From NCBI GenBank assembly GCA_037574385.1, contig GCA_037574385.1_4529.1: a stretch of DNA of 64,000 nucleotides, one strand, 5' to 3'. This DNA is from a phage. The notes beneath the pieces were generated by a model. It worked only from the letters and a program-made list of their open reading frames with translations, ran no database searches and was not told the origin of the DNA. A program made the translations under genes and the position numbers. Below, one piece after another: positions 5,355-49,906 of this stretch. The stretch's first letter is position 1; each line of letters begins with the position of its first letter.

Positions 5355-6455
5355 TTACGCTGTGAAGATTTTATCCCACATTGCAACAACTGCATCTCGG
5401 TTATACTTCTTCCATACTGCTTCAGCACGTTTAACTCGAGCTTCGTATGTGTCAGTGAATTCTAATACAGCTTTTGTGTAAAGCGCAACTACTTCTTTCT
5501 TAGGAGTAGAGGAATCAATTTCTACACGCACAGTATCTGGGTCATATTCGAATGTCGCATGCGGATAATCCTTAAAAACTAACTGAATTACAGGGACACC
5601 TTTAGAAATGGCTTCAATAGAACTATTCTCTACCGTACCTGTGTCAGGACACGTATTAATAAGTGCTTTAGCTGTTTTAAGACGTTCCATAATTTCACTG
5701 TGTGGAGCATCAATAATAACAGGATACTTAGCCGGTGGTGCCCATTTACTAGGACAGTATCCTGCGCCATTTTCGCCTAGTGCTTTAATCGCTTCAAGAG
5801 CAACATCAGTACGACGCATTTTAGTGTCATAACGTTGTGCACTAATAATCAGATCAGTCGCCGGAAGAACTTCAGGTTTCTCATTCAAACAAATAACCGG
5901 ATAATCTTCGGCTTCAAACAACGGATTTGCTCGCCAATAATCATAATCAATTTTGTCAGTCAGACCTGAAGTCATATAACAATATTTGCGTTCAAATTCA
6001 CGGAAGGCTTTAGTAGGAGCATAACTCTTACCACCGTTCTTATGAATTTGAATAGTCTGGTCCCAAATTTGAACAATGCCACGAGATACCGGCTCAAACG
6101 GTGTTGCCATAAAATTCTTATGAACTTTAGAGAGACCTGCGTCTTTAATTGCCTGAACGGTTAGTTTAGTCGGTTCCATTGTAACAACGAAATCGTACTC
6201 ATTAATGCCGGCTAGTTCAACAATCTTACGAGCCATAGTATAACTCATACCTAGACTGAATTTAGTCAGATGACCAACAGGATGATGATTAACCTTCCAA
6301 TCACCAAACGTGTCATTATCAAAGCCGATATAATCAATATCAGCACCGATGGACACAAGATATTTCAACACATTTAAATGTACTGCTTCAAGACCACCTT
6401 GTACACGTTCTGGGTTAAACGGGACTGCGCGAGATGGGATAAACATAACTTTCAT
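5355..6455 (-). CDS. GT-B fold glycosyltransferase (GT4-like), candidate DNA sugar transferase
   Basis: 366 aa; C-terminal TGTVENSSIEAISKGVPVI resembles the GT4 E-x7-E/G-PVI donor-binding motif; sits between rIIA.1 and gene 39 where T4 has gene 60/mobA. Confidence 0.65.
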   Translation of the reverse strand: MKVMFIPSRAVPFNPERVQGGLEAVHLNVLKYLVSIGADIDYIGFDNDTFGDWKVNHHPVGHLTKFSLGMSYTMARKIVELAGINEYDFVVTMEPTKLTVQAIKDAGLSKVHKNFMATPFEPVSRGIVQIWDQTIQIHKNGGKSYAPTKAFREFERKYCYMTSGLTDKIDYDYWRANPLFEAEDYPVICLNEKPEVLPATDLIISAQRYDTKMRRTDVALEAIKALGENGAGYCPSKWAPPAKYPVIIDAPHSEIMERLKTAKALINTCPDTGTVENSSIEAISKGVPVIQLVFKDYPHATFEYDPDTVRVEIDSSTPKKEVVALYTKAVLEFTDTYEARVKRAEAVWKKYNRDAVVAMWDKIFTA

Positions 6456-6465
6456 AATTAAGCCT

Positions 6466-6499
6466 TATTAAAATTAAAATGAAGCTCCCGAAGGAGCTT
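6466..6499 (-). terminator. intrinsic terminator after gene 39
   Basis: Minus strand AAGCTCC-TTCG-GGAGCTT hairpin overlapping the gp39 stop, followed by CATTTTAATTTT. Confidence 0.5.
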
Positions 6500-8315
6500 A
6501 GGACATCCATTCTTTACGAAGTTCTGAATCATCACCCAACAACATTTCAAAGAGTTCTTTCCAATTTTCAGGAAGTTTAACTACGTCGTACACAGGGTTT
6601 TGAATCATTTCACGATATTCTGACTTTTCAAGGGAGCCCAATCCCTTGATGTATCGAATACTATGCTTAGGCAGTGTATCTTTAGCTTCTTCATACTCAG
6701 CTACAGTATAAAACCATTTTTGAGTTTTGCCGATTTGTGCAATAATTACAGGTGTTTTAACAAAGCGAATACGTCCTTGTTCAAACAATTCAGGCCAATT
6801 ACTAAAGAAAGCAAGCAAAGCCGGATAGATACTTCCAAGACCGTCATGATCGGCATCGGTCATAATTGCAATATTACGATAGTTCGTATTCTCTGCCTTT
6901 TCACCAAGAATAAGACCTGTGATAGCACAGATATCAAAGAGCTCTTTGTTCTTCATCATATCGGCATATGACATACCCCAGCTATTCATCACCTTACCAC
7001 GTAATGGGAATCCGCCGTGTAGTTCACGGTCACGAACATCAATGAGATATCCAATTGCCGAATCACCTTCTGTTAAAAACAATGTCGTATCTGCATCTTT
7101 ACCGCATTGGTTAGCTTTAATATGCTTATGAACCTTAGCTTTAGTTGCCTTTTTAGCTGCTTTAGTTTCTGCAGCCTTTTCTGCTGCCAATTTACGAGCT
7201 AATGCTGCTTCAACAATAGGCATAATCAAGGCTTCGTTTTTAAGAAGTGCCTGAGCAATTTTCTTAGCATCTAATTGGATATGATTACGAATATCACCAT
7301 ACGTTGACGTTAAACGTTCTTTAGTCTGAGAATCAAAACGCATGTTGCTCATGTCTCTAATAAACATCAACATTGTGAGACATTCTTTAACACGAGCTTT
7401 AGTGACTTCAATACCCTTATATTTCTTTTTAATACCCGGCAAAAGATGTTCGCAAATATCATCCATTACACATTCAACATGATGACCACCATTTTTAGTA
7501 TGGATGTTATTCACATAAGTTAAATGACGGAAGCCATCCGGTGATGTTGTGAATGCTATAGAGACTTTATCATTTTCTTGAATGATGTTATCTTCACCAA
7601 ATTGTTTAGCAAATCGTTTAAAATTGCCATCAACCTTTTTACCATTAAATGTGAACTTGATATCAGGATAAACGACTGCCAATGTTTGAAGTCGGTCTAA
7701 AGTAATATCTAAATAAATTTGAGATAAATTATGCTCTTCAAATGAAGTGAAATCAGGAGTGAAGATTACTTTAGTGCCTTTACCTTTAGATTTCTTAGAA
7801 GACCATGATTTGTTTTCCATTCCGTTTGAACAGTTAACAGTGATTTCATTTTCGCCATCTGACGTGATGCCTGTAAACAACGTAGAGAAGATATTAGTTA
7901 AACTACTCCCGACGCCGTTCATACCACCTGTCTTGCGTTCAGAGTCGTCACCAAAGTTACCACCGGCCTTTGGAATAGTCCAGGCTGCTACAGGCCCAGG
8001 AATTTGTTCACCCGTTTGGTCGGTAACTAAACCTTGAGGAATACCACGTCCGTTATCTTCCACTGAAACTTGATTATTTTTAATTTGCACATCAATTTTA
8101 TTTGCAAACTTAAATGATGTACGAATAGCTTCATCAACCGAGTTGTCAATAATCTCATCGATTAATTTAACCAGACCAGGAACATATTCAACTTGTTGAT
8201 ATTTACCAAACAAAAAACGCTCATGTGCTTCTTTAGCTGAAGAACCAATATACATACCACTACGTTTCTTAATATGTTCTACATCTGACAGTACCTTAAT
8301 TTCATTTTTAATCAT
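6498..8315 (-). CDS. 39: DNA topoisomerase II large subunit (ATPase), unsplit gp39/gp60 form
   Basis: 605 aa; N-terminus MIKNEIKVLSDVEHIKKRSGMYIGS and GyrB-like ATPase/TOPRIM motifs match recalled T4 gp39; GAGGAG SD. Confidence 0.93.
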   Translation of the reverse strand: MIKNEIKVLSDVEHIKKRSGMYIGSSAKEAHERFLFGKYQQVEYVPGLVKLIDEIIDNSVDEAIRTSFKFANKIDVQIKNNQVSVEDNGRGIPQGLVTDQTGEQIPGPVAAWTIPKAGGNFGDDSERKTGGMNGVGSSLTNIFSTLFTGITSDGENEITVNCSNGMENKSWSSKKSKGKGTKVIFTPDFTSFEEHNLSQIYLDITLDRLQTLAVVYPDIKFTFNGKKVDGNFKRFAKQFGEDNIIQENDKVSIAFTTSPDGFRHLTYVNNIHTKNGGHHVECVMDDICEHLLPGIKKKYKGIEVTKARVKECLTMLMFIRDMSNMRFDSQTKERLTSTYGDIRNHIQLDAKKIAQALLKNEALIMPIVEAALARKLAAEKAAETKAAKKATKAKVHKHIKANQCGKDADTTLFLTEGDSAIGYLIDVRDRELHGGFPLRGKVMNSWGMSYADMMKNKELFDICAITGLILGEKAENTNYRNIAIMTDADHDGLGSIYPALLAFFSNWPELFEQGRIRFVKTPVIIAQIGKTQKWFYTVAEYEEAKDTLPKHSIRYIKGLGSLEKSEYREMIQNPVYDVVKLPENWKELFEMLLGDDSELRKEWMS

Positions 8316-8337
8316 GTTGTCTCCTCGTTATGAAGGT

Positions 8338-8364
8338 ATTCTATCATCCGAAATCTAAAGCAAA
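8338..8364 (-). promoter_or_regulatory. middle-type promoter (MotA box TTTGCTTTA, 12-nt spacer, TAGAAT) for gene 39
   Basis: Minus strand TTTGCTTTAGATTTCGGATGATAGAAT; MotA box abuts the T-run of terminator 8355-8380. Confidence 0.45.
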
Positions 8365-8380
8365 AAGGGCCGAAGCCCTT
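8355..8380 (-). terminator. intrinsic terminator
   Basis: Minus strand AAGGGC-TTCG-GCCCTT followed by TTTTGCTTT. Confidence 0.5.
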
Positions 8381-8804
8381 ATTTAAATTTAATTTTCTGA
8401 AGTGCATCAATTGCAGCCAAACGCCCTTGTTCACTTTTAACTGTAATGACCACATCGCCTGATACGATCACCGAACCATCAACAAATTCTATAGAGTCTT
8501 TTTTGAAATCGACAGCTGTATCTGGTTCCGGAACTTCTTCAAAGAATTTAAATTCTGCACCATAAATCAGAATATCACCTTGCATACTATGAATAGTTCG
8601 GCCATAATCGCCTACGGCTTCTACAGCAATCATTGAAACACCGTAACCAATCATCTCTTCCACAATAAAATCTTTAGACAATAAAGTAGTATGCAGATTA
8701 GTATTAAGACGTTTACCAGTCGTATTAAGAATTCTCAAGAAATTATCTTCCTGTCCTTTGATAATACGGTATTTCTTGCCAATTTCAAAACCTTTAAAAG
8801 CCAT
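8379..8804 (-). CDS. hypothetical protein (141 aa; goF position)
   Basis: ORF with ATG at 8804; size and position as T4 goF, no motif support. Confidence 0.45.
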   Translation of the reverse strand: MAFKGFEIGKKYRIIKGQEDNFLRILNTTGKRLNTNLHTTLLSKDFIVEEMIGYGVSMIAVEAVGDYGRTIHSMQGDILIYGAEFKFFEEVPEPDTAVDFKKDSIEFVDGSVIVSGDVVITVKSEQGRLAAIDALQKIKFK

Positions 8805-8806
8805 AA

Positions 8807-8986
8807 TTATCCCTTCTTAAGTAAGTCGTAAAAACCACCGTTCACATGTTTAGGAGCAGAAACCCGACGAGTAGACAGACGATGACATTCAGGGCAAACA
8901 TCGTTTTCTCGTTCAGAAATCCTTTTAATTTTTTCATATTCATGACCACAATCTTCAGATTGACATTTATAGTCGTATAACGGCAT
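8807..8986 (-). CDS. small zinc-ribbon protein (59 aa)
   Basis: Not in ORF track (<60 aa); CxxxxC...CxxC (MPLYDYKCQSEDCGH...VCPECHRL); AAGGA SD; packed between neighbours with 2-nt gaps. Confidence 0.5.
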   Translation of the reverse strand: MPLYDYKCQSEDCGHEYEKIKRISERENDVCPECHRLSTRRVSAPKHVNGGFYDLLKKG

Positions 8987-8988
8987 TA

Positions 8989-9399
8989 TTATTCCTTAAA
9001 ATGTGTTTTCAACATTTGATACAAAGACCATGCCTGGTCGTTATTTTCGATAGTAATCGTCATCACCGGAAATTCGGTCAATTCATCAAGTTCTTCAGAG
9101 TCTTGCTCTTCAGACGCTTGATATGGATTTCCAACTTCATCAAAAAACTCTGCTTCACTAGTAGAGAGCCAGATAAAGTTTTCATCAAGAATATCACCAC
9201 CAGTTGCGTATCCAACCATGCCAGTAGATGTCACAATTTTAGTAGGTCGACCAAGATGGTCAACATCTAATACTTTAAATGGTTCCATGCCAAGACGTCG
9301 TGCATAAATCCCATTATCAGTGTGGTTTTTAATAAACTCTTCTTGGACACGTTTATCTTTAAATTGGTACCATGAGTTAACGCGGAATTTATTAGCCAT
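8989..9399 (-). CDS. hypothetical protein (136 aa)
   Basis: Track ORF trimmed to ATG at 9399 that overlaps the upstream stop (TAATG). Confidence 0.5.
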
Positions 9400-9626
9400 T
9401 AGTAAGTTTCCTTCCAATAAGTTGTACCATTTTCAGTGATTTCACGGAAGATACCATAGATAGGCATTTCATCACCGAGTTTTTCGTAAACGTAAACCAC
9501 TTCAGTGTAGCATAAAAATTCAGTCCAGTTTTTCTGTACAACAACTAAATCAGGATTAAACAGAACATCTTCAAACTCATCGATGTTTGAATCAGTAGTT
9601 ACGTTTTTAATGATTTGACGTTTCAT
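9399..9626 (-). CDS. hypothetical protein (75 aa)
   Basis: Internal ATG (MKRQ...) with AAGAGGAG SD downstream of early promoter 9655-9683. Confidence 0.5.
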
Positions 9627-9654
9627 AATATTCTCCTCTTGTTTTGATAGGTCT

Positions 9655-9683
9655 ATAGTATCATAGACCATAGTTGTTGTACA
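9655..9683 (-). promoter_or_regulatory. early promoter (TGTACA-N17-TACTAT); GGTCTAT/ATAGACC inverted repeat around -10
   Basis: Minus strand TGTACAACAACTATGGTCTATGATACTATAGACCTATC. Confidence 0.5.
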
Positions 9684-10208
9684 TCATTTTAGCAAAATAA
9701 AATCAACTTGTTCTGCCAATGAACGTCTGAACATTAATTGACAACTTCCGAGGATGAAATCAGGTGCTTCATAGACCGCGATGTAGTATCCTTTAGCTTT
9801 CAAGAGTTCAACATCTACCTGGTCATCAAACCATGCATAAACCGCGTCAACACTTTCAAATCCAAAATAGAACCCTTGAGCCCAATCTTCACTCAATTCA
9901 AATGTGTGCTCAATTCTATAGTATCTTAAGATATTTTGTTCAAGGAGTTTATCTTCATTTACTGTAGGACGATTAGGGACATTATAGTTGTCGCCGTGAT
10001 GGTAGAAATTACCTGAGAGTATTCCATGTTTATCAAGGAACTCCCATGTTTCTTCAGAGTTGTCGGTGCCCGACCAACCGTAAGGTGAGCGAGGTTCTTT
10101 ATTCCAAGAGGTTTCCCAAATTCTGACGGCTTTACCGTCTTCGATGGCAATTCCTGGTAATGATTCACGTTGAGTACAAAAACTACGTTCTACGCGGTAA
10201 ACTAACAT
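9684..10208 (-). CDS. hypothetical protein (174 aa)
   Basis: ORF with AGAGGAGAA SD; early promoter 10235-10263. Confidence 0.55.
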   Translation of the reverse strand: MLVYRVERSFCTQRESLPGIAIEDGKAVRIWETSWNKEPRSPYGWSGTDNSEETWEFLDKHGILSGNFYHHGDNYNVPNRPTVNEDKLLEQNILRYYRIEHTFELSEDWAQGFYFGFESVDAVYAWFDDQVDVELLKAKGYYIAVYEAPDFILGSCQLMFRRSLAEQVDFILLK

Positions 10209-10234
10209 ATTATTCTCCTCTGGTTGATACGGTT

Positions 10235-10263
10235 ATAATATCAAAACCAGAGGAGAAGTAAAC
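10235..10263 (-). promoter_or_regulatory. early promoter (GTTTAC-N17-TATTAT) with spacer complementary to downstream SD
   Basis: Minus strand GTTTACTTCTCCTCTGGTTTTGATATTAT; spacer TTCTCCTCTGGTT pairs with AACCAGAGGAGAA at the RBS. Confidence 0.5.
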
Positions 10264-10267
10264 AACT

Positions 10268-10687
10268 TTATGCGAAAGCAGCCGGGCTATATTTTTTAAT
10301 TTGGAATTCAGGAACTACCATGAACTGACCAGCGAAAACGATGTTATAAAGCTTAACACCATCTTCTACCCAACGGTCGCTAATAAATCCGGCGATTTGC
10401 TTAGTTTTCCATGGCGTTCCATCGGTTGCCGCAGCAATAGTGAATTCGTGGTCTTTTTCAACAGAAACTGATCTGCATAGTCCCCATTTGAACGCTTTTT
10501 CTTCTGGTTCAATGAATTGGCTTGAGACGTAGCCAATGTTGCCATCAGCATCACGAACTTTAACTTGATGTGGACTAAAGAGTCCACAACTTACAGAAAG
10601 AACTTCAACCAACTTCCCAGCAACTTTAGAGCGAGAAGCAACAGATACATATACGTAATCACCAATAGAGAGATTTGCAATATTCAT
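10268..10687 (-). CDS. hypothetical protein, paralog family member (139 aa)
   Basis: C-terminal FISDRWVEDGVKLYNIVFAGQF shared with the two upstream genes; AAGGAA SD. Confidence 0.55.
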   Translation of the reverse strand: MNIANLSIGDYVYVSVASRSKVAGKLVEVLSVSCGLFSPHQVKVRDADGNIGYVSSQFIEPEEKAFKWGLCRSVSVEKDHEFTIAAATDGTPWKTKQIAGFISDRWVEDGVKLYNIVFAGQFMVVPEFQIKKYSPAAFA

Positions 10688-10696
10688 AATAATTCC

Positions 10697-11182
10697 TTAA
10701 GCTTTACGAGGAGACACATAACGAGTGATTTCGGATTCTTTAACAACTCTGAAGTCACCTAAGAATACGATATTGTATAACTTTTCACCATCTTCAACCC
10801 ATTGGTCACTAATGAAGCCACACATAGTATCAGTTTTGCTTGGATAACCGTATTCATCGATGAAGTCAAATTCTTTATCAGTCTGGAATTCAACGCCTTT
10901 GCAAAGGGCCCATTTGAACTGTACATTATGCTCTGTGGATTCAACTTTTTCTCTTGAAGCAAAAGCACTACTCACAGGCGTTTCCAAGAACTTTGCACGA
11001 ACATAAGCAAATTTGGTTTCCTGTGTCCCAAAACTAGGAATAATACGAACCTTTACCTCAGAATCTTCATCTTTAACGCCTTCTTTAAGTTGAATACTTA
11101 CAACTTCGACCAATTTTCCTGCGGCTTTAGAACGAGATTTGTTAGATACGCGAACGATTTCACCAATAATACCAAGATTCAT
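10697..11182 (-). CDS. hypothetical protein, paralog family member (161 aa)
   Basis: Track ORF trimmed to ATG (MNLGIIGE...); shares SRSKAAGKLVEV and FISDQWVEDGEKLYNIVF with 10268-10687. Confidence 0.55.
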   Translation of the reverse strand: MNLGIIGEIVRVSNKSRSKAAGKLVEVVSIQLKEGVKDEDSEVKVRIIPSFGTQETKFAYVRAKFLETPVSSAFASREKVESTEHNVQFKWALCKGVEFQTDKEFDFIDEYGYPSKTDTMCGFISDQWVEDGEKLYNIVFLGDFRVVKESEITRYVSPRKA

Positions 11183-26351: not shown

Positions 26352-26900
26352 TTAACGAGCCCATTTGATAATTTCTGTAATCAAATTATTACGTTCGCTT
26401 GCATTAAATCCTATAACTTTGTTAGCACCATCATGATTAAGTAATTGATACGTTTGGATTTTGTTATGAATTGCAAACTCTTCAAAATGTGAAATGACTG
26501 TATTAAAACCGAATGAAGACAAAGTAATAAGGTCGTCTTCAAAACTTTCAGTCATTTCGTTACGTGTTAAAATAATTGTGAACACATCATGGTTTTGGCA
26601 AAGACGAATATAATCCTGTTCATAAACGTCAAGAACCGAGTCCGCATCTTGTCGAATACGTCCATAAACCCAGTTACTAATATATCCACGGTCTAATAGA
26701 TAAATCTTAGTAGGGTCTAAATAATTCAACATCGTTTCGAAACAGCCAACTTCATTTCGAGACTTAACATCGAAACGCCCATCAACTGTTCGTTTAGGGA
26801 AATCAATCTTTACATATCTTTCACTAATTTCCATTATGTCATTAATGAAAGTTGTTTTACCAGCATTATCCGGTCCGTCTACTAAAATAATTTTAGCCAT
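26352..26900 (-). CDS. P-loop nucleotide kinase (thymidylate/dNMP kinase-like)
   Basis: 182 aa; Walker A VDGPDNAGKTT and DRGYIS lid-like motif; at the T4 beta-gt locus between uvsX and 42. Confidence 0.6.
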   Translation of the reverse strand: MAKIILVDGPDNAGKTTFINDIMEISERYVKIDFPKRTVDGRFDVKSRNEVGCFETMLNYLDPTKIYLLDRGYISNWVYGRIRQDADSVLDVYEQDYIRLCQNHDVFTIILTRNEMTESFEDDLITLSSFGFNTVISHFEEFAIHNKIQTYQLLNHDGANKVIGFNASERNNLITEIIKWAR

Positions 26901-26901
26901 T

Positions 26902-27801
26902 TTATTCCTCGATTACGACATCTTCGTATTTAGGTATATTATACGGTGAAGAAATTAAAGCATTAAAGTAGATGAACTCACCAAGACCTGGATGGAATAC
27001 TTCTTCAGGATTTTCGAAATATTGAATCTTCGGACGTCCTTTAAGAATTTGATAGTACTCAGTTTTAGTTGGTTTAAAAATTCGAATCAGCGCTTCTTCA
27101 GGGTACTTATTTCTGTCGAAGCTAATATTTGGATCTGTTATATAAAGCGGTTGGCCTAATTGAATTGCACATTCAACCACTTGTTCAAAACGATAGCACG
27201 GGTCACTAATTCGAAATGGATGAAAAATACCATCTAGATGAATAGGAGCCAAATCACCTACAAGACGCTGCATGATGGAAGGACGTATAACTTTCTGCGT
27301 TACGATAATCTTATTACCATCTGCACCTGCGTTAACCAGCACTTCCTTTTGACGTTCATTCAACACAGTAGTTTGAAGTGAACGATTAACCGACAACATA
27401 TCGGTTTTTAAGAATTCATCAATATAAAAGCGTGGTTTATTAGGGTCTGTAGTGATATTGAAATTGAATTCCACATCAAAAGCGCCATCATATCCAGTGA
27501 TATCTGTGATTAGAAAATCACAATCATAATAAGCAATTAATGAATCAACCACAAATTCATTTTCAGACCAGAAATATTTACGAGTGTTATACGCGTTATC
27601 TTTATACCATAATGGAACAAACTTAAATTCCGGGAAAAGACGTTCACATTCTTTAATATCAGATGCATTACGTGGATATGTAATCACATCACCCGGATTA
27701 GCACGGTGCAAATGAAGTTGGAAGTTGCCATCCTTAAGGATAGCATACTGTCCAGTTTCATAAGACCGCATACTCAAGATTGGTACGCGGAAAATAGCCA
27801 T
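26902..27801 (-). CDS. hypothetical protein (299 aa) at beta-glucosyltransferase locus; candidate DNA-modification enzyme
   Basis: Translationally coupled to gene 42; no similarity to recalled T4 beta-gt; function by synteny only. Confidence 0.55.
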   Translation of the reverse strand: MAIFRVPILSMRSYETGQYAILKDGNFQLHLHRANPGDVITYPRNASDIKECERLFPEFKFVPLWYKDNAYNTRKYFWSENEFVVDSLIAYYDCDFLITDITGYDGAFDVEFNFNITTDPNKPRFYIDEFLKTDMLSVNRSLQTTVLNERQKEVLVNAGADGNKIIVTQKVIRPSIMQRLVGDLAPIHLDGIFHPFRISDPCYRFEQVVECAIQLGQPLYITDPNISFDRNKYPEEALIRIFKPTKTEYYQILKGRPKIQYFENPEEVFHPGLGEFIYFNALISSPYNIPKYEDVVIEE

Positions 27802-28517
27802 TAGTCAAGGAATCCTTTAACATAATCAAAATCACGTTCAAACACATGGGCACTTACCATGGTATGAGTATAATCACCAACTTCTACACCGCATTCGTTA
27901 GCGATATAATGAAGTAATTTTCCTTGGAGATAAAAATCCAACTGCATAACAACAGCACAGTTCTGAGAACGCATATGGCAGTGCGTATAAAGCTTACCAT
28001 CACGAATATAATAAGTAACTGAGTCAGTACATGGATATTCAAGCGTTTCGTCTGAATCAAGCAAAGCCTGATCAGAACTTTCTAGAATTTGGAACACAAC
28101 TCTTCGGGAGTTAGGCTTCTCTTTAAGTTCTTTTAGAAGAGCTGGTAATTGGGCCGCAATGCGAGGACCATAGAAAGTGTTGAAGTTCGCCGGCAAAACA
28201 TCTGATTTTGGTTTAGAAATAAATTTAGCGACATTAGGATATGCCTTAAACGCTTCTTCTGCGTTGGTACCACCAGAAATCATAAACTTCCAGAAGTCTT
28301 CGGCATATTCATAAGAGATGCGGTTAATACGTGGGTCGGTCATTTTGAATGATGATGGAGTGTCAACAACTACTGTCATAGACCCAATTTCATTACAACG
28401 TCCAATACGAGAATCAGTTACGAATTCCGGGTTTTCTAAAATTTCACGATTGACTGCTTTAAATGCGGTTTGAAAATCTGCGGCTTTGATATATTTCATT
28501 GTGTTATGTTTTCCCAT
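27801..28517 (-). CDS. 42: deoxycytidylate 5-hydroxymethyltransferase (thymidylate synthase fold)
   Basis: 238 aa; RRVVFQI...YPCTDSVTYYIRDGKLYTHCHMRSQN parallels T4 gp42 catalytic region; position between uvsX and 43. Confidence 0.8.
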   Translation of the reverse strand: MGKHNTMKYIKAADFQTAFKAVNREILENPEFVTDSRIGRCNEIGSMTVVVDTPSSFKMTDPRINRISYEYAEDFWKFMISGGTNAEEAFKAYPNVAKFISKPKSDVLPANFNTFYGPRIAAQLPALLKELKEKPNSRRVVFQILESSDQALLDSDETLEYPCTDSVTYYIRDGKLYTHCHMRSQNCAVVMQLDFYLQGKLLHYIANECGVEVGDYTHTMVSAHVFERDFDYVKGFLD

Positions 28518-28559: not shown

Positions 28560-28799
28560 TTATTTGAATTTCTTGACAATGTTGATATAACGTAAAGCTT
28601 CAGCATCGATACTTCCAAGGACACTATGAAGAAATGCATCAGCGTAGTATTCCAATTGAATAGGTTCTTTAATCACTTTAGCCGCTTTGGTTTCAAACAG
28701 GCCCATCAGGGCCTTTTTAAGAATTTGTTCGTTGCTGTTAATTTTCGTAGTCAAAATCTCTTCATTAAGTTGGTGGTTAAAAGTTTTTCTAGAAATCAT
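28560..28799 (-). CDS. hypothetical protein (79 aa)
   Basis: ATGA-coupled to upstream gene. Confidence 0.45.
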   Translation of the reverse strand: MISRKTFNHQLNEEILTTKINSNEQILKKALMGLFETKAAKVIKEPIQLEYYADAFLHSVLGSIDAEALRYINIVKKFK

Positions 28800-29956
28800 T
28801 CCGGGTACCTCAAAGCGTCATCAGAGTTAGTTATATCAATAATAGATATAGAGTTTTCTGCTAACCCATTTTTAGATAATTGACGTTTATAATATCTTTC
28901 ACAATATGTACACGTTGACCCACAGATTTCATTAGCACAATCAAAATCAGGATGTCTGAACCACCTTTTTTCTAAAAAGCCATCTAACAAAGAGGTTTCA
29001 ATATTTACTGTATGTGAAAACTCAGTCTCATTTTCAAGAGTGAAAATAGTCTCTAAAGGCTTCCACAGTTCTAACAAATTACCTTCAAACTTTTCAGAAG
29101 CGTATGCTTCAAGAACTTTCAAAATGTAGTCTGTGCTACCTGTACGTCCTGAAACTTTGAATTGAGTGATACCAATATCATTATAAAGTTTCAAATCTTG
29201 AGGACGAACAAAACGAGTTCTCAACCAGTTAAATGGGTCTGTATCACGAGCTTTAATACAGTGCTGCATTGGATATCCATTTAAGGATTTAGCATCATCA
29301 GCTGTAACATCAGTACTATGGAAAATATAGCAAGAGTCACGATAGCTACAATGTGTTGTATACCCTTTACCAGCATTAGAACAGAACTCATTTACAAGAA
29401 CTTCAAATATTATATTGTTCTTATTGCAAAACTCTGCTGCACGCTTCAGGAAAGAAACTGAACGGTTCTTATGAATTCCACAGCAGACCTTTTTGATATT
29501 ATATTGGTCATGCAAGTATTTGATTTGAGTTACGGCATCGACATGTAGAATTGTTGAAACTTCAATCTCAATATCTTTATTGACTTCACGAACAATTTCC
29601 ATAACAACAGGGTTAGCGATAGTAATACGCCATACGCCTATTGACCAAAGATACTGAACATAATCCTGAATAGCTTTCTTCTTCCACTCAACTAGTTCTC
29701 TTTTTGAACCAGGATTTATCGTGTTGAGTGTATAGTTAAAGCAAATACCTAATTCGTTACAACGTTTAACGTAGTCTTCTAACATCTTTTTGTCAACGTC
29801 AGGAAGCCTAAAATCAGGTCTGGCTGCTACAAAAGCCATTTCTCTTGTAGAGCCATATACTTCGTTTATCAAGCTATTAGGATAGGTTTTATTGAGCTCT
29901 ACGATTTTATCAAGAAGAGCTAAATCAAAATTCGTTCCGATTTTAAAAGTATTCAT
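28796..29956 (-). CDS. Cys-rich putative Fe-S protein (386 aa), unknown function
   Basis: Track ORF (GTG) trimmed to first ATG; Cys cluster VCCG...EFC...EFCSNAGKGYTTHCSYRDSC and C-terminal CGSTCTYC (CX3CX2C). Confidence 0.55.
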   Translation of the reverse strand: MNTFKIGTNFDLALLDKIVELNKTYPNSLINEVYGSTREMAFVAARPDFRLPDVDKKMLEDYVKRCNELGICFNYTLNTINPGSKRELVEWKKKAIQDYVQYLWSIGVWRITIANPVVMEIVREVNKDIEIEVSTILHVDAVTQIKYLHDQYNIKKVCCGIHKNRSVSFLKRAAEFCNKNNIIFEVLVNEFCSNAGKGYTTHCSYRDSCYIFHSTDVTADDAKSLNGYPMQHCIKARDTDPFNWLRTRFVRPQDLKLYNDIGITQFKVSGRTGSTDYILKVLEAYASEKFEGNLLELWKPLETIFTLENETEFSHTVNIETSLLDGFLEKRWFRHPDFDCANEICGSTCTYCERYYKRQLSKNGLAENSISIIDITNSDDALRYPE

Positions 29957-30012
29957 TTTTTTGCATCTCACGTTAATTGATGCGATGGTTTTTGCAGGTC
30001 TTACTTAAATTA

Positions 30013-30399
30013 TTATAGATTCGGTTTATATGATTTAAATGTTTCGAATTCGCCTTTATTCATAAGAGCTTTGAATTCGTCAGGACGCATAGCTTTGTCG
30101 TCGATAATCCAATCATATACTGGTTTATGTGTTAGCAAATTATGGTACTTCAAGCCAATGTTTGCCAAGTTCTGAATCAGACTTGGGAGAATGTCAATTG
30201 CTATACGTCCAGGACCTACTGACTTCATACCACGAGCAGTGTAAAGCGTTATGGTATGCCCTGCATCATACAGGGCATTAATGGCAGACACCATTTCGAC
30301 GTCTGGTTTGAAGTTCACGTAATCGCGATTGTTATTCCATTCTGTGATGCAATCATCGACATCAAAACAAAGATTAAGCATGTTTTCTACACGGTGCAT
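30013..30399 (-). CDS. HAD-superfamily phosphatase (small; start uncertain)
   Basis: N-terminal LCFDVDDCIT (HAD motif I-like), LYTARG, YDWIIDDKA; chosen ATG overlaps upstream stop (TAATG); alternative ATGs at 30414 and 30381. Confidence 0.55.
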   Translation of the reverse strand: MHRVENMLNLCFDVDDCITEWNNNRDYVNFKPDVEMVSAINALYDAGHTITLYTARGMKSVGPGRIAIDILPSLIQNLANIGLKYHNLLTHKPVYDWIIDDKAMRPDEFKALMNKGEFETFKSYKPNL

Positions 30400-32084
30400 T
30401 AGATTTGTTCCCATTGATGAGTGATATCGCCACCGATTGGACGATAAGAAACACCAGTTTCTTTATCAGTTAGTACCCATTTACCAGGATTTTTTGTAAT
30501 CAGAGTAGCCGTTACAGGTTCTGCTACGTCATAACTAATAGAGCCGTCTTGAAGTACACGGCCCATGTTACGTAATTGCTTAGTTAGAAGTTCCATACCT
30601 TTATAATATGCGGCTACCGCTTTAAGTGGATTATTCTTGAAATAACCACCTAATGCAATCCAGATAATTGCCACTGCCAAATGATGATACTCGTTAAACG
30701 AACTCATCTTTCCATATTTGTAAACTAATGGATTGATGTTAATAGTCACATTACAAGTTGTTTCATCAATAATAAACTGGCCCCAGGTCGGATTAGCGTT
30801 GAATTCATCATAACCTGAAACAGCATAAAGCACTTTAGCTTCATCATACAATTTTGGCCCGTAAATCTTGGTTTCACCAAAATATCCACGAGGGTCGATA
30901 AACTTGACTTCGCCGTTATCAGTAATCATAGTATTACTGAAGTTCGGGTCACCGTGAATAACAGAGTACTGTCCCTGAGAACGGTTATGATAACGAATAA
31001 GGTGTTCTAAAGCTTGTTTCAGCATTGGCTTCAGACGTCCAATCTTAGTGTAGTTCACGTGTGTGATTTTACCAAATGAATCAATCAATGGCTGAATGCT
31101 TTCACAACGATCAATAACTTTCGTATAGAACTCTTTAGTGAAATCACGACGAACAGTTTCAGGACTTACAAAATAAATGTCTGTGTTAAATTTCAGTGCA
31201 TCTAAAATTGCATCAATAATTTGTGGACGAGCAAGACTTGATTTGGATTTAATATATTCAAATGCTGGCTTACCTTTAATGCGTTCCATTTCAAAGTTAT
31301 TTTCATTAACAGAAACTAACTGAGGAACTGAATCTGATTTCACTTTCAAATACCATGAAATCTCATCTTTTTGAAGAGCTCGACCTTGTTCAGTTAATGC
31401 GAATTTAGTTACAGTTTCTTCACCAATTTCAACCGCATTAAAACTACGATTAAGTTCACGAACTTCATGAGCTTTTTCAAGTTTAGGCATATCACCAAGG
31501 TCGATGATATTCATAAGCTCTGATTTATTGAATGCGCCGCTGTAAAGGAATTCTACAAAATCACGTCCTTTGCAGTATTCGTGAATTTCCTCATCAGTAG
31601 AACCCATGTAGAATTCCCAGTCTTTGAACTGATAAATTCCTACAACATTACCGCCTGTTGCACCTACATTAGTGATATTTTCACCATCGAAATTATATCG
31701 ACATTCATCACCTTTAACATAGATTGCGTTAACATTCCAAGACCATGAACCAAAATCAGGAATAATATCACACCAGTTAACAACTACGTTATGGCCGTCT
31801 AAATCTTTGTGTAATTTAGCAAGAGCATAAGCAGAACCATACGCTTCATCAACTGTACGAATAGTCACATTGAACCCTTCTTGCTCACAATAAGCTCGAA
31901 CAGTTTCAGCAAATTTTGAATGAACTACTACAATAATTTCATCTGCGCCAAGGTCAGAATAAATTGTATACAAATTGCTCAGAATAGTGTCTTGTTTATA
32001 GTTCACAAGAACTTTTGGAATATGGTGAGTAATTGGATATAAACGAGTTGCCAATCCAGCACCAAGAATAACAGCTTTTTTCAT
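30399..32084 (-). CDS. bifunctional sugar-1-phosphate nucleotidyltransferase / APH-type sugar kinase
   Basis: 561 aa; N-terminus ILGAGLATRLYPIT (RmlA/GlmU-type G-x-G-T-R-L-x-P-x-T); C-terminal VIHGDPNFSNTMI and IDPRGYFG (APH/choline-kinase catalytic loop). Confidence 0.7.
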   Translation of the reverse strand: MKKAVILGAGLATRLYPITHHIPKVLVNYKQDTILSNLYTIYSDLGADEIIVVVHSKFAETVRAYCEQEGFNVTIRTVDEAYGSAYALAKLHKDLDGHNVVVNWCDIIPDFGSWSWNVNAIYVKGDECRYNFDGENITNVGATGGNVVGIYQFKDWEFYMGSTDEEIHEYCKGRDFVEFLYSGAFNKSELMNIIDLGDMPKLEKAHEVRELNRSFNAVEIGEETVTKFALTEQGRALQKDEISWYLKVKSDSVPQLVSVNENNFEMERIKGKPAFEYIKSKSSLARPQIIDAILDALKFNTDIYFVSPETVRRDFTKEFYTKVIDRCESIQPLIDSFGKITHVNYTKIGRLKPMLKQALEHLIRYHNRSQGQYSVIHGDPNFSNTMITDNGEVKFIDPRGYFGETKIYGPKLYDEAKVLYAVSGYDEFNANPTWGQFIIDETTCNVTININPLVYKYGKMSSFNEYHHLAVAIIWIALGGYFKNNPLKAVAAYYKGMELLTKQLRNMGRVLQDGSISYDVAEPVTATLITKNPGKWVLTDKETGVSYRPIGGDITHQWEQI

Positions 32085-32139: not shown

Positions 32140-32269
32140 CATACTTTGCCTGTAGACCAATCATAATCCATCCAATTACAAGTGTTGGAATCATTACTGG
32201 AGCCGTTAAGCTCCAGTAGATAGTCATGACAAGCATCAATAGTAAAAGTCCTATTGTTATTGCTTTCAT
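32126..32269 (-). CDS. small hydrophobic peptide (47 aa)
   Basis: Not in track; ATG overlaps the stop of the SIS gene (ATGA); predicted membrane helices. Confidence 0.35.
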   Translation of the reverse strand: MKAITIGLLLLMLVMTIYWSLTAPVMIPTLVIGWIMIGLQAKYECFN

Positions 32270-32901
32270 TGTTCGCCTCGTAACATGGCACCTAGTGCAC
32301 CGCCAGGGTGGAACTTAAGGAAATCATTAGAGGTAAATCCGCGTTCAGACGAAAGGTTGATAGCGAACGTATCGATAAGCGCTAACAACAATGTAGTGGA
32401 CATAGTCGGAGCTAAAGAGTTCTCGTCAACTTCTACCGCGATACCGGTACAGAATGTATAATCAAAAAGAGCTTCGTATTCTTGTGGAATGTCAGGGTTA
32501 CAATGTAACAGAATCTGTTTAACCTGAGGACGAATCATACGAAGATGTTTAGCAACACCTATCATTTCTTCAGTCTTACCAGAACGACTGATGTGAACTA
32601 ATACATCATTAGGTGCAATGAATCCTGCATCACCGTGAGAATAATGCCCAGTGTTCAAATACATGCTAGGAATACCTAGTGAAGCAAAAGTCTCGGAAGC
32701 TTTAGTTGCGATATTAGCGTTCTTACCAACACCTGTAATAATTACACGACTTTCATAATTACTCAGTCCTGGGCGTCGAAGAGTTTCTAGAATAGCATTA
32801 TAACGAGCAGGGTTTTGACTAATTACTTTGGCCATAGCGGCCAAAGAAGAAGCTTGTTTTATGATTGCGTCAATAGCGATAGTGATTGGTGTAGTTTTCA
32901 T
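32266..32901 (-). CDS. SIS-domain sugar-phosphate isomerase (KdsD/GutQ-like arabinose-5-phosphate isomerase, no CBS domains)
   Basis: 211 aa; ITGVGKNANIATKASETFASLGIPS, ISRSGKTEE, LAPTMSTT, FHPGGALG match KdsD SIS-domain motifs. Confidence 0.7.
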   Translation of the reverse strand: MKTTPITIAIDAIIKQASSLAAMAKVISQNPARYNAILETLRRPGLSNYESRVIITGVGKNANIATKASETFASLGIPSMYLNTGHYSHGDAGFIAPNDVLVHISRSGKTEEMIGVAKHLRMIRPQVKQILLHCNPDIPQEYEALFDYTFCTGIAVEVDENSLAPTMSTTLLLALIDTFAINLSSERGFTSNDFLKFHPGGALGAMLRGEQ

Positions 32902-47151: not shown

Positions 47152-47622
47152 TTAATCATGTTTCCACACCCCATCGGTATTTGACCAAAGTCGCTGATTA
47201 TCTGATCCTCGCCACAGCTTTTTAGTCGGAAGATTTTTCTCATACTTCCCATCAATAATAACATCAACATATTTAAGCATTTCTAGCTGTTTAATATCTT
47301 CAAACTTATATCCTGTCCACAACCAAATGCTTTTATTGGGATAAAGATTTTTAATAGTTTGAACCACAGAGTGAATAACATCTCGGTTATCAGGATAGAG
47401 AGGGTCGCCTCCAGTTATAGTCAATCCTTCTATATAATCATTATTCAAACATTGAATTAATTGTTCTAGTGTTTCACCAGTGAATGGAGCACCATTTCTA
47501 GCATTCCATGTTGATTTATTATAACACCCTTCGCATTTATGCAAACAACCTGTAACGAAAAGAACGACCCTACAACCAGGGCCATTAACAAAATCGCAAG
47601 GATAAAATCTATCATAATTCAT
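47152..47622 (-). CDS. nrdG: anaerobic ribonucleotide reductase activating protein (radical SAM)
   Basis: 156 aa; CLHKCEGC (CX3CX2C) radical-SAM motif; ATGA-coupled to nrdD. Confidence 0.88.
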   Translation of the reverse strand: MNYDRFYPCDFVNGPGCRVVLFVTGCLHKCEGCYNKSTWNARNGAPFTGETLEQLIQCLNNDYIEGLTITGGDPLYPDNRDVIHSVVQTIKNLYPNKSIWLWTGYKFEDIKQLEMLKYVDVIIDGKYEKNLPTKKLWRGSDNQRLWSNTDGVWKHD

Positions 47623-49436
47623 TGGTGTTTAACCCTATGCATGATTTCTTTATTTTTACCGAGATTAAATCCGCGTTCGTTCGGATTTCCCAAATAACCG
47701 CACGTTCTTCTTATTGTGTTCATCTTTTTAGGATCAGTTTCTCCGCAAACTGAACAAACAAATCCGTTTTCAGTAGGAGTCATTTCATGGGTACTTCCGC
47801 ATGTAAAACATTTATCCACTGGCATATTAACACCAAAATAATCTAAATGTTGTGCAGCATAATCCCAGACGGCCTCAAGTCCTTTTAAGTTATTTTTCAT
47901 ATCAGGAAGTTCAACATAAGAAATGTGACCACCTGTCGCAATGAAATGATATGGCGCTTCACGAGAAATCTTTTCAAACGGAGTAATATTTTCTTCTACT
48001 GAAACGTGGAAACTATTAGTGTACCAGCCTTTATCGGTAACATCTTTTACACTTCCGTATTTTTCTGTATCAAGTTTACAGAAGCGATAACAAAGGTTTT
48101 CAGCAGGAGTCGAATATAAACTAAAAGCAAATCCAGTTCTTTCAGTCCACTGTTTAAGATGAGCATTCATTTTAGTTAAAATTTCTTGCCCAATATCACG
48201 ACCGACAAGAATATTCAATTCGTGAATACCAATGTATCCCAAAGACACTGAACTTCTACCGTTTTTAAATAACTCAATTATGTCGTCATCAGGTTTAAGA
48301 CGAACACCGAATGCACCTTCTTGGTAAAGAATAGGAGCAACAGTCGCTTTAACTCCTTTTAAGGAACTAATTCTACACATCAAGGCTTCAAAACACAGAT
48401 CCATTCGTTCATTGAATAATTCAACAAATTTCTGTTCATTGAACTGTGTTCCAATATAAGAATCTAATGCGATACGAGGAAGATTCAGCGTTACAACACC
48501 TAGATTATTACGCCCATCAAGAATTTCATTACCGGTTGAATCTTTCCACACACTCAAGAAACTACGGCAACCCATTGGAGAAACTGGAACTGAAGAACCG
48601 GTAATAACTTTGTTATTCTTAACCGAAATGATGTCAGGATACATTCTTTTGCTTGCACATTCTAAAGCAAGCTGCTTAATATCATAGTTCGGGTCGTCTT
48701 TATAAAGATTAACACCTTCTTCAATGAACATAACAAGTTTAGGGAAAATAGGAGTTATCCCATCACGTCCAAGACCTTTAATCCGATTTTTCAGAATTGC
48801 TTTCTGAATCATTCGTTCAGTCCAATCGGTTCCCATGCCAAATGTAATTGTTACAAAAGGCGTTTGTCCATTTGAACTAAAGAGAGTATTTACTTCATAT
48901 TCATAAGCTTGGAATGCATCGTATACGTCTTTTTCTGTTTTAGATTGAGCATAATTCAACGCATCAGCGATTTGCCATTTTTCTGCATCTTCAACATGTT
49001 TAGCGTATGTGCGTTTAACATAAGGAGAAAGAACTTTATCGACATTCGCAAATGTAGTTCCGCCATACTGATGTGAAGCAACTTGTGCGGTAATTTGTGC
49101 CATAATTGCAGTAGCAACACCAATTGATTTAGGCGTTTCAATTTGAGCATTGCCTAATTTAAATCCATTCTCAAGCATCCCCTTTAAATCGACTAAACAG
49201 CAATTAGTAAATGGAAGAGCAGGAGAATAATCAATATCATGCATGTGGATAATTCCACTTTCATGCGCATTCATAATAAAAGACGGGACCATATTTTTGG
49301 CAATGTGCTTAGACACAATACCAGCCATAAGGTCCCGTTGAGTTGGAAAAACACGAGAATCTTTATTAGCATTCTCGTTCAAAAGATCTTTATTAGTTTT
49401 ATGAATTAATCCTTCAATTTCTTTTTCAATTTTCAT
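47619..49436 (-). CDS. nrdD: anaerobic ribonucleoside-triphosphate reductase (glycyl radical enzyme), uninterrupted
   Basis: 605 aa; C-terminal zinc ribbon CFTCGS...CSVCG and glycyl-radical motif RRTCGYLG. Confidence 0.9.
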   Translation of the reverse strand: MKIEKEIEGLIHKTNKDLLNENANKDSRVFPTQRDLMAGIVSKHIAKNMVPSFIMNAHESGIIHMHDIDYSPALPFTNCCLVDLKGMLENGFKLGNAQIETPKSIGVATAIMAQITAQVASHQYGGTTFANVDKVLSPYVKRTYAKHVEDAEKWQIADALNYAQSKTEKDVYDAFQAYEYEVNTLFSSNGQTPFVTITFGMGTDWTERMIQKAILKNRIKGLGRDGITPIFPKLVMFIEEGVNLYKDDPNYDIKQLALECASKRMYPDIISVKNNKVITGSSVPVSPMGCRSFLSVWKDSTGNEILDGRNNLGVVTLNLPRIALDSYIGTQFNEQKFVELFNERMDLCFEALMCRISSLKGVKATVAPILYQEGAFGVRLKPDDDIIELFKNGRSSVSLGYIGIHELNILVGRDIGQEILTKMNAHLKQWTERTGFAFSLYSTPAENLCYRFCKLDTEKYGSVKDVTDKGWYTNSFHVSVEENITPFEKISREAPYHFIATGGHISYVELPDMKNNLKGLEAVWDYAAQHLDYFGVNMPVDKCFTCGSTHEMTPTENGFVCSVCGETDPKKMNTIRRTCGYLGNPNERGFNLGKNKEIMHRVKHQ

Positions 49437-49906
49437 TTTAAACTCTTTCTAAGCTGCTTTTTGAATGAAGATATTAATTGTGTTTTAGTATCAGATTCAT
49501 TATATTCAAATCCTCTTTGAAGCATCTCAGCCATCATTTCCTCTTTACCTAGTCTTGAGAACTCTTTAGTTTTGTCTGGAACAAAATTAGGATGGATATT
49601 ATTATCAGAATAATCTTGTTTCAAATAAGCAAGAAGAGCTTCAAGCCATTCGAGGTAATCAACGTTTTGACCTTTCAAACCGGAACGGTTGAACTTATGC
49701 TTCATTTGACCTTCTGCTGCGTTGCACAGATTACAGAGTAATCCACGAACTCTACCGGCTTTTGGCCCGTTTAATTCATGGTCGTGGTCAAGATGGTTAC
49801 CTTGAACATCAGAGTCTAATTCACGGCGGCAAATAGGACACTTACCGTTCTGTGCATCATAAAATTTTTGTTTTTCTTCTTTATATTTTGCGCCTGATAA
49901 TAACAT
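49433..49906 (-). CDS. 49: endonuclease VII (Holliday junction resolvase)
   Basis: 157 aa; MLLSGAKYKEEKQKFYDAQNGKCPIC...HLDHDHELNGPKAGRVRGLLCNLCNAAEG near-identical to recalled T4 gp49. Confidence 0.92.
   Translation of the reverse strand: MLLSGAKYKEEKQKFYDAQNGKCPICRRELDSDVQGNHLDHDHELNGPKAGRVRGLLCNLCNAAEGQMKHKFNRSGLKGQNVDYLEWLEALLAYLKQDYSDNNIHPNFVPDKTKEFSRLGKEEMMAEMLQRGFEYNESDTKTQLISSFKKQLRKSLK

Follow-up and report, generated by a model that had tools for sequence, protein, structure and literature searches.

What does a cysteine-rich protein do in the middle of a phage DNA-modification cassette? The question is raised by a 386-amino-acid protein encoded on the minus strand (28796–29956) of a 64,000-nucleotide phage sequence, contig GCA_037574385.1_4529.1 of GenBank assembly GCA_037574385.1, which we call the window. 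The original prediction had offered two enzyme classes, a U32-like, oxygen-independent hydroxylase or a radical S-adenosylmethionine (SAM)-like enzyme, and the evidence assembled here, largely from sequence comparison, favours the former. We consider it probable that the protein is the O2-independent, prephenate-dependent counterpart of the thymidylate synthase (TS)-type 5-hydroxy-dCMP synthase encoded in the same cassette.

The window holds a T4-like phage replication module, all on the minus strand, with gp41 helicase, gp40, UvsX, the inserted cassette, gp43 DNA polymerase, RegA, gp62 and gp44. Because the U32 protein is 99.2% identical to RB69 ORF050c and the cassette region has close matches (98% identity to Escherichia phage phiC120, with around 155 records matching at 95% identity or more), sequence identity assigns the window to an RB69-like Mosigvirus.

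A compact member of the U32 family

Profile searches bore out the proposed U32 membership. PF01136 (Peptidase_U32) matched residues 94–286 with 42.2 bits against a gathering cutoff of 22.4 (E = 7.3e-11) and was the sole Pfam match at E ≤ 0.1; homologues of the protein likewise bear precomputed PF01136 annotation. The open reading frame (ORF) spans 28796..29971 with a GTG start or 28796..29956 with an ATG start, both on the minus strand, and we take the ATG at 29956 to be the real start because M1 and the MNTFK N terminus are kept in homologues. Against six orthologues the gene has a dN/dS of 0.03–0.08, indicating strong purifying selection.

An AlphaFold2 model built from a 62-sequence alignment (pLDDT 91.9, pTM 0.90) predicts a U32-type TIM-barrel fold. 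Its best match among solved structures is Mk0906 of Methanopyrus kandleri (PDB 5d88), itself a U32 protein (Foldseek E = 3.4e-7, TM score of 0.65 on the target), with the other matches being generic TIM barrels; 5d88 is also the fold hit given for RB69p050 by Lee et al. (PMC13326640). Fold comparison alone found this structure, as a phmmer search of PDB sequences gave no match at E ≤ 1. The two proteins differ in that they share 11% identity and that 5d88 consists of the barrel only (247 residues) and has no C-terminal cysteine knot. As modelled, the window protein is a compact single-domain member of the family, made of a TIM barrel followed by such a knot.

Among the four U32 proteins of E. 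coli, RlhA is the best paralogue for a profile of the phage family (hhalign 84%, E = 7.5e-6; the other three 12.6%, 6.2% and 0.4%). Orthology to RlhA, UbiU or TrhP was considered and rejected. The sole NCBIfam match was UbiU at 18.5 bits against a cutoff of 440, so that no equivalog cutoff was reached, and domain architecture differs, with no DUF3656 or C-terminal extension in the phage protein when aligned with the four E. coli proteins. RlhA and the phage protein share around 19% identity in a global alignment, space their cysteines differently and are not orthologues. Of 1.84 billion representative proteins, the family profile recovers only 1,693 with a cutoff of E ≤ 1e-3 and 474 when the cutoff is tightened to E ≤ 1e-30, and almost all have 330–420 residues. 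Judged by these matches, the phage-type U32 proteins form a compact subfamily, separate from the large cellular U32 groups.

Conserved cysteines and predicted metal sites

The suggestion of an iron–sulfur (Fe–S) enzyme had been drawn from a dense cysteine cluster and a C-terminal motif, and all of these strings are present: VCCG (C158/C159), EFC (C177 and C192), CSNAGKGYTTHCSYRDSC (C192/C203/C209) and CGSTCTYC (C345/C349/C352), the last preceded by C340. The 13 cysteines in 386 residues (3.4%) compare with 1.28% on average across the 68 ORFs of 100 or more residues on the minus strand of the window (binomial P = 0.0017), a richness similar to that of the known Fe–S protein NrdG in the same window. 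The cluster is not a product of chance, since it is conserved among homologues. C158, C192, C203, C209, C233, C340, C345, C349 and C352 are invariant in 62 homologues (46–88% identity), and in 90 distant members (23–49% identity) C192, C203, C233, C340, C345, C349 and C352 are each found in 89–90 of the 90. Position 209 is cysteine in 60 and histidine in 29 of these distant members, an alternation resembling exchanges at metal-binding positions. Conservation of the VCCG pair and C177 stops at close relatives and does not extend to the wider family.

Eight of these cysteines would probably make up two four-ligand metal sites, putatively two [4Fe–4S] clusters. UbiU and UbiV each carry one [4Fe–4S] cluster held by four cysteines (PMC6747719), and in RlhA cysteines are essential both in the U32 motif and in the C-terminal region (PMC5727448). 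C203 and C209 of the phage protein align with the first two UbiU cluster ligands, C169 and C176, and with the equivalent cysteines of RlhA and TrhP; in a MAFFT alignment C349 and C352 fall on the C-terminal CxxC of RlhA. Only two ligands of the recurrent U32 motif CX6CX15CX3/4C (PMC6747719) align, however, and its CX3/4C pair is absent; by alignment the near-invariant C192 and C233 appear to replace it.

The CX3CX2C string at the C terminus is where the alternative of a radical-SAM enzyme took hold. Radical-SAM enzymes have three cysteine ligands, in a CX3CX2C site close to the N terminus of a partial TIM barrel, with one iron left free for SAM. Because the string lies at the extreme C terminus (345–352 of 386) and is accompanied by the conserved C340, it would be a four-cysteine site rather than a three-cysteine SAM-binding site, and PF04055 gave no match to the protein at E ≤ 0.1; NrdG in the same window does match this profile. 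The other reading that annotation invites is a collagenase-type peptidase, as databases label the family 'peptidase' or 'collagenase'. That label is historical, and every U32 member of defined role is tied to hydroxylation (PMC10990095). With the modelled fold also U32-type, we give almost no credence to either reading and rejected both.

The same modified base with and without the U32 gene

The chemistry of the cassette is known from RB69, whose DNA contains arabinosylated 5-hydroxycytosine, not hydroxymethylcytosine, in full replacement of cytosine (Lee et al. 2026, PMC13326640). The TS homologue gp48 converts dCMP to 5-hydroxy-dCMP with flavin and O2, incorporating 18O2; the SIS, AfhE-like and HAD proteins lead to UDP-arabinose, and gp46:47, here called GT299, is the first DNA arabinosyltransferase (PMC13326640). 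Activity of the gp48 type was confirmed in vitro by He et al. 2026, as cited in PMC13326640. The cassette in the window, of the RB69/HY126/LC53 type, thus makes 5-hydroxycytosine and is not a hydroxymethylcytosine/glucosyl system.

The U32 gene itself, RB69p050, appears in that study in Table 1 alone, as a 'Sugar or heterocycle reductase' from fold hits, and is not discussed; the Discussion mentions tRNA hydroxylation pathways without linking them to it (PMC13326640). Nor is it discussed in the Thanatos and 2018 RB69 papers. We found no published function for the gene, and full-text searches combining U32 with RB69, arabinose, hypermodification, chorismate mutase or phage gave no linking paper, with He et al. 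2026 (Nat Chem Biol) and Mahler et al. 2025 (Cell Host Microbe) lying outside that search.

U32 sits between the HAD and TS genes in all 17 of the T4-like loci that we sampled, confirming the predicted location in a DNA-modification gene block. The further idea that its presence there signals an extra chemical step beyond glycosyl transfer did not survive. Acinetobacter phage DLP3 has the same base chemistry as RB69 and no U32 gene (PMC13326640). Because RB69, with U32, and DLP3, without it, share their base chemistry, U32 adds no distinct chemical group, and it more likely provides an alternative, O2-independent hydroxylation of the base before glycosylation. U32 is an accessory, not a core, member of the cassette, and its role is probably that of another way to the same hydroxylated base, not of an added decoration.

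The comparison with DLP3 also bears on whether U32 might be a redox enzyme that modifies a sugar or heterocycle, working in the UDP-arabinose branch or tailoring the attached sugar. Such a role would fit the placement of U32 between sugar-activation and base-modification genes and the provisional label of Lee et al. from fold hits (PMC13326640), and the genes that come after U32 in one locus outside the T4-like phages (L006), for a DAHP_synth_1-family protein and an epimerase, can be read as sugar (Kdo-type) metabolism. But the sugar branch can do without U32, because DLP3 and other Acinetobacter phages arrive at arabinosyl-5-hydroxycytosine with the same SIS/AfhE/HAD genes in its absence. In many lineages, moreover, glycosyltransferase and kinase genes accompany U32 while SIS/AfhE genes do not; sugar reductase activity is not known for any U32 enzyme, and the specific link to chorismate mutase (CM) described below has no role in sugar chemistry. 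We regard a sugar-directed function as improbable.

U32 genes where the known hydroxylase is missing

Outside the T4-like phages we collected 41 U32 loci from metagenomes and IMG/VR, representing 32 lineages when clustered at 90% U32 identity and including jumbo phages with DnaE-type polymerases as well as small siphophage-like contigs. Linked to U32 were genes resembling GT299 (22 of 32 lineages), the thymidylate-kinase-like kin182 (24 of 32), AfhE (12 of 32) and SIS (9 of 32), and genes for dCMP deaminase, dUTPase_2/MazG-like proteins and dUTPase recurred as neighbours in 6–9 lineages. Searching the flanks with three profiles (a phage TS hidden Markov model (HMM), E. coli ThyA and a combined profile) revealed a TS homologue near U32 in a single lineage, L026, where it is ThyA-like; independent, precomputed Pfam annotation showed no PF00303 in six non-T4 loci. 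GT299, which needs a 5-hydroxyl acceptor, thus accompanies U32 in loci that lack the known hydroxylase. Neither ferredoxin nor flavodoxin, as a dedicated electron acceptor, was present among the recurrent U32 neighbours.

In the L026 locus (5491–11167, on a 230-kb IMG/VR contig) this TS gene lies with GT299-, kinase- and AfhE-like genes, and its product resembles E. coli ThyA (E = 8.6e-41) far more than the 5-hydroxy-dCMP synthases do.

These neighbourhoods speak to a further alternative, an RNA hydroxylase in which the phage copies RlhA or TrhP function on host or phage tRNA or rRNA, tuning translation, with its cassette position accidental. The closest characterised relatives are indeed RNA hydroxylases, and T4-like phages encode their own tRNAs. 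However, more than 30 independent phage lineages, which differ in their replication modules, have U32 alongside genes for the DNA glycosyltransferase, the kinase and nucleotide-pool enzymes, and the protein has no RNA-binding or DUF3656-type extension and reaches no NCBIfam equivalog cutoff. A function on RNA is, in our estimate, decidedly improbable.

The phyletic pattern also suggests a link with oxygen. In a set of one genome per species for 185,579 species, the U32 subfamily was found in six contigs, all from obligately anaerobic gut lineages (Erysipelotrichales, Bacillota, Oscillospiraceae, Romboutsia twice and Phocaeicola). Gene order is U32–CM–GT299–AfhE–kinase in Romboutsia and GT299–SIS–AfhE–U32 in Oscillospiraceae, with no TS in either. 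Among phage records, the TS-type hydroxylase occurs in 374, including 57 from Acinetobacter and 20 from Rhizobium phages, whereas the 222 records with U32, all at 80% identity or more, are from phages of Enterobacterales and Shewanella, with Acinetobacter and Rhizobium not listed. Acinetobacter phage Mokit and Pseudomonas phage PspYZU05 have cassettes in the gene order of the window but for one difference, as TS comes straight after HAD and U32 is absent. Phages of Acinetobacter and Rhizobium thus have the TS type, and the U32 type occurs in phages whose hosts are facultative or strict anaerobes. The window also encodes the anaerobic ribonucleotide reductase NrdD and its activase NrdG, from which we take the phage to be adapted to replication in the absence of O2; the TS-type hydroxylase, which needs O2, could not sustain this on its own.

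A possible phage-encoded supply of prephenate

Prephenate is the product of CM. U32 hydroxylases depend on prephenate as the proposed oxygen donor, which has been shown for UbiU/V by isotope labelling (PMC10990095, PMC5727448, PMC6599085). A 4-nt overlap joins the U32 stop codon to the start of the next ORF in Serratia phage LC53 and in Enterobacter phage Entb_45, and in both this ORF encodes a CM_2 protein (E = 1.7e-11 and 2.4e-10, above the Pfam cutoff). With iterated HMMs, CM was found directly after U32, or after U32 and a small conserved ORF (orf79), in 15 of the 17 sampled T4-like loci. Among 50,697 phage records the T4-like CM family is present in 51, every one from a T4-like phage, and in nearly all of these a TS homologue and/or a peptidase is annotated at the match or next to it. 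Beyond the T4-like phages, CM or 3-deoxy-D-arabino-heptulosonate-7-phosphate (DAHP) synthase adjoins U32 in 9 of 32 lineages, including DAHP-synthase/CM fusions (Pfam-verified for L035). These phage CM and DAHP-synthase genes look like auxiliary metabolic genes for the shikimate pathway.

The fusions (PF00793 with PF01817) lie beside U32 in L035 (8399–9430), L038 (7290–8354), L039 (8323–9384), L049 (11076–12194) and L037 (3–968). L006 and L024 have a stand-alone DAHP_synth_1-family protein, and L056 has separate, adjoining CM and DAHP-synthase ORFs.

In the window, orf79 occupies the slot where relatives have orf79 and/or CM, and a CM HMM detected no CM elsewhere in the 64 kb at E ≤ 10. That orf79 is a degenerate CM was ruled out, as it gave no CM_2 match at E ≤ 10 and an hhalign probability of 0.2%; orf79 and CM are separate adjoining ORFs in four genera. 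Orthologues of orf79 lie between U32 and CM in loci L012, L018, L021 and L025; phages with this order include Pectobacterium PM2-, Yersinia TG1- and other T4-like phages, and the orthologues share the core Y..DAF.HS..G.I..E..R.IN. The 114-residue CM of LC53 has an N-terminal extension resembling the orf79 N terminus, and this likeness suggests an orf79 fusion or remnant. Its product might assist the U32 enzyme as an accessory factor.

Proposed role of the U32 enzyme

Family membership, fold, ligand conservation, gene neighbourhoods and phyletic distribution are established by the comparisons above, whereas Fe–S binding, use of prephenate, the substrate and independence of O2 are inferred. We propose that the U32 enzyme hydroxylates cytosine at C5, most likely at the level of dCMP. 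The oxygen would come from the 4-hydroxyl of prephenate, with prephenate converted to phenylpyruvate and CO2 in the scheme proposed for UbiU/V, and two Fe–S metal centres would pass two electrons to an acceptor. Since the window phage has no CM of its own, host PheA/TyrA would be the prephenate source. After phosphorylation, the resulting 5-hydroxy-dCMP would enter DNA through the phage polymerase, and GT299 with further transferases would then arabinosylate it there. These steps after hydroxylation would be common to the O2-dependent route. With both hydroxylases, phages of facultative anaerobes such as this Mosigvirus could make the modified base at any oxygen level, while phages of strict anaerobes would depend on the U32 enzyme alone.

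The nucleotide level is favoured because the neighbours of U32 include a Tmk-like kinase, dCMP deaminase, dUTPase_2/MazG-like proteins and dUTPase. Alternatively, U32 could hydroxylate cytosine after replication, directly in DNA, topping up or replacing nucleotide-level synthesis. All known nucleic-acid U32 enzymes act on polymers (PMC5727448, PMC6599085), the closest E. coli paralogue being RlhA, and 8 of the 32 non-T4 lineages have no kin182-like kinase within their flanks. Yet the phage protein does without the extra domains of RlhA and TrhP (386 residues compared with 653 and 453), a Tmk-like kinase accompanies U32 in the other 24 lineages and dCMP deaminase or dUTPase/MazG-type genes do so in 6–9, and the full replacement of cytosine in RB69 DNA (PMC13326640) would be easier via the nucleotide pool. 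Hydroxylation within DNA therefore seems to us unlikely, if well worth keeping in mind, and we continue with dCMP as the preferred substrate.

The proposed enzyme has precedents in ring chemistry and in logic. RlhA (YdcP), the E. coli 23S rRNA 5-hydroxycytidine-2501 synthase, shares the U32 domain and makes 5-hydroxycytidine, matching the product proposed here and the ring chemistry required; it depends on prephenate and Fe–S biogenesis (PMC5727448), and RlhA, TrhP and UbiU/V are all implicated in prephenate-dependent, O2-independent hydroxylation (PMC5727448, PMC6599085, PMC10990095). RlhA differs in being a 653-residue protein with DUF3656 that acts on one pre-50S rRNA position, whereas the phage protein is single-domain and belongs to a DNA-modification/nucleotide module. 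The pairing of an O2-dependent enzyme with a prephenate-dependent U32 enzyme for the same product is known from TrhO and TrhP (tRNA ho5U34) and from UbiI/H/F and UbiU–UbiV (ubiquinone) (PMC6599085, PMC6747719, PMC10990095). Unlike these pairs, the one proposed here is phage-encoded, would act on a deoxynucleotide or DNA and would serve DNA hypermodification, and its O2-dependent partner is a flavin-using TS homologue, not a rhodanese or classical flavin mono-oxygenase. The UbiU–UbiV heterodimer has two Fe–S sites per functional unit, and the phage U32 protein has two predicted sites in one polypeptide. Compared with the 5-hydroxy-dCMP synthases RB69 gp48, DLP3 gp80 and HY126, encoded by the adjoining gene in the cassette, the U32 enzyme would have the same product and pathway, but its fold and cofactors are unrelated, with Fe–S and prephenate predicted in place of flavin and O2.

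Several observations weigh against this proposal. Direct in vitro hydroxylation has not yet been shown for any U32 enzyme (PMC10990095), the U32 substrates known so far (rRNA, tRNA and polyprenyl-phenols) include neither DNA nor free nucleotides, and the phage cysteine spacing CX10CX5CX23C is non-canonical relative to the U32 motif. RB69 gp48 alone is enough for 5-hydroxy-deoxycytidine under aerobic conditions. CM is lacking from the window and from all sampled Mosigviruses and Marfavirus, and it occurs in only 51 of 222 U32-positive records, a share that is low because Mosigviruses dominate the database. The absence of TS from non-T4 loci covers around 8–10 kb around U32 only. Finally, the aerobe/anaerobe contrast rests on few independent lineages, and E. 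coli Dhakaviruses (VR5) have the TS-type hydroxylase without U32, so U32 is not obligatory for enteric phages.

Even so, we think it likely that a U32 prephenate-dependent hydroxylase has been recruited to DNA hypermodification, which would be what is new here. The balance also tips, if narrowly, towards two firsts, a U32 enzyme with a deoxynucleotide (or DNA) as its substrate and an O2-independent route to a hypermodified DNA base, with oxygen from prephenate and the donor often secured by a phage CM or DAHP-synthase/CM fusion.

If this is so, a gap would be closed in a pathway described in 2025–2026, in which the only known 5-hydroxy-dCMP synthase needs O2 and the phages infect gut bacteria and carry an anaerobic ribonucleotide reductase. 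Prephenate-dependent hydroxylation would be extended from RNA and quinones to DNA precursors; phages would rewire host aromatic metabolism towards DNA modification, giving phage CM and DAHP synthase an auxiliary-metabolic rationale. Glycosylated 5-hydroxypyrimidine DNA would be common in phages of strict anaerobes (Clostridia, Erysipelotrichia, Bacteroidales), and a family of about 500–1,700 clusters (at 50% identity) would mark such glyco-DNA in phages of gut anaerobes, in which the known O2-dependent enzyme cannot work. This would matter for the biology of gut phages, their evasion of restriction, their sequencing and their use in therapy. Being compact and acting on a soluble nucleotide, the enzyme might also allow in vitro reconstitution of U32 chemistry, so far achieved for no family member.

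Feature map and variant loci

Table 1 Features of the window discussed in the text, with the evidence for each assignment.
Feature	Position	Strand	Evidence
U32-family Cys-rich protein, 386 aa, RB69 ORF050c orthologue; proposed (predicted) prephenate-dependent, O2-independent cytosine C5-hydroxylase	28796..29956	-	ORF; PF01136; phrog_5757 'peptidase'; 99.2% identity to RB69
Metal-ligand set 1 (predicted), U32 core: C192-X10-C203-X5-C209-X23-C233	29258..29383	-	Translation, alignment, conservation
Metal-ligand set 2 (predicted), C terminus: C340-X4-C345-X3-C349-X2-C352	28901..28939	-	Translation, conservation
orf79, small conserved ORF, phrog_8601	28560..28799	-	ORF; ATG overlaps U32 stop codon (ATGA)
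TS homologue, O2/flavin-dependent 5-hydroxy-dCMP synthase, RB69 gp48 orthologue	27801..28517	-	PF00303 E 2.3e-15; 99.2% identity to RB69ORF048c; RB69 gp48 function per PMC13326640
GT299, DNA arabinosyltransferase 1, RB69 gp46:47 orthologue	26902..27801	-	phrog_3891; assignment from PMC13326640 Table 1
kin182, thymidylate-kinase-like nucleotide kinase, RB69p045 orthologue	26352..26900	-	phrog_761 'thymidylate kinase'; PMC13326640 Table 1
HAD-type phosphatase, AfhF-like, RB69 gp51 orthologue, UDP-arabinose branch	30013..30414	-	TIGR01689 E 4.3e-13; PMC13326640
Bifunctional nucleotidyltransferase/kinase, AfhE-like, RB69 gp52:53 orthologue	30399..32084	-	PF00483 E 8.1e-10 and weak kinase-family matches; PMC13326640
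SIS-domain arabinose-5-phosphate isomerase, RB69 gp55 orthologue	32266..32901	-	PF01380 E 9.6e-10; relatives' annotations; PMC13326640
Anaerobic ribonucleotide reductase NrdD (47619–49436) and activase NrdG (47152–47622)	47152..49436	-	NrdD: PF13597 E 3.2e-171 and Gly_radical; NrdG: Fer4_12 and Radical_SAM

The cassette varies among the T4-like phages. In Serratia phage LC53 a putative (homing) endonuclease gene (L001, 4352–4990) is inserted between the HAD phosphatase and U32, and at this position the window has a 56-nt HAD–U32 gap and no ORF. The VR5 cassette (L064, a Dhakavirus) is a rearranged, smaller version in an enteric phage: it is without U32, has no SIS isomerase within the flanks and carries its kinase upstream of TS, not downstream of the glycosyltransferase. 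Elsewhere in the window, nrdG comes directly before nrdD, and the start of an endonuclease VII (gp49) homologue (49433–49906, minus strand) overlaps the nrdD stop by 4 nt, which is the ordinary T4 gene order.

Several of the non-T4 loci suggest other substrates or sugars. On two DnaE-type jumbo phage contigs (L003, 10001–11086, and L007, 8001–9083) a dCMP deaminase gene is followed by U32 and then by a 248–254-residue protein with no Pfam match; no GT299 homologue was found in their flanks, and the substrate might there be dUMP, giving 5-hydroxyuracil, instead of dCMP. In L008 (8001–14179), U32 is followed by a TAGT-like glycosyltransferase (PF20691) and a dUTPase/DCD gene, with UDP-galactopyranose mutase (GLF) and Gly_transf_sug genes nearby, which hints at hexofuranose glycosylation of the hydroxylated base as in Rhizobium phage RL38J1. 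In L057 (5237–7054), L041, L048 and L033, one ORF of around 600 residues with no Pfam match is hit by both the kin182 and GT299 HMMs and by this criterion appears to be a kinase–glycosyltransferase fusion. Finally, L004 (10001–17428), L005 and L067 (a Bacillota metagenome-assembled genome) have two U32 paralogues with an NT5C 5'-nucleotidase, a deoxynucleoside kinase and a nucleoside 2-deoxyribosyltransferase-like protein, their further neighbours being a nicotinamide mononucleotide-transporter-like protein and a radical-SAM/SPASM enzyme. Because these contigs carry dockerin/GH43 genes they are probably from an anaerobic Firmicute, and the loci may represent a variant of the pathway that acts on nucleosides, or else a system belonging to a cell or a prophage.

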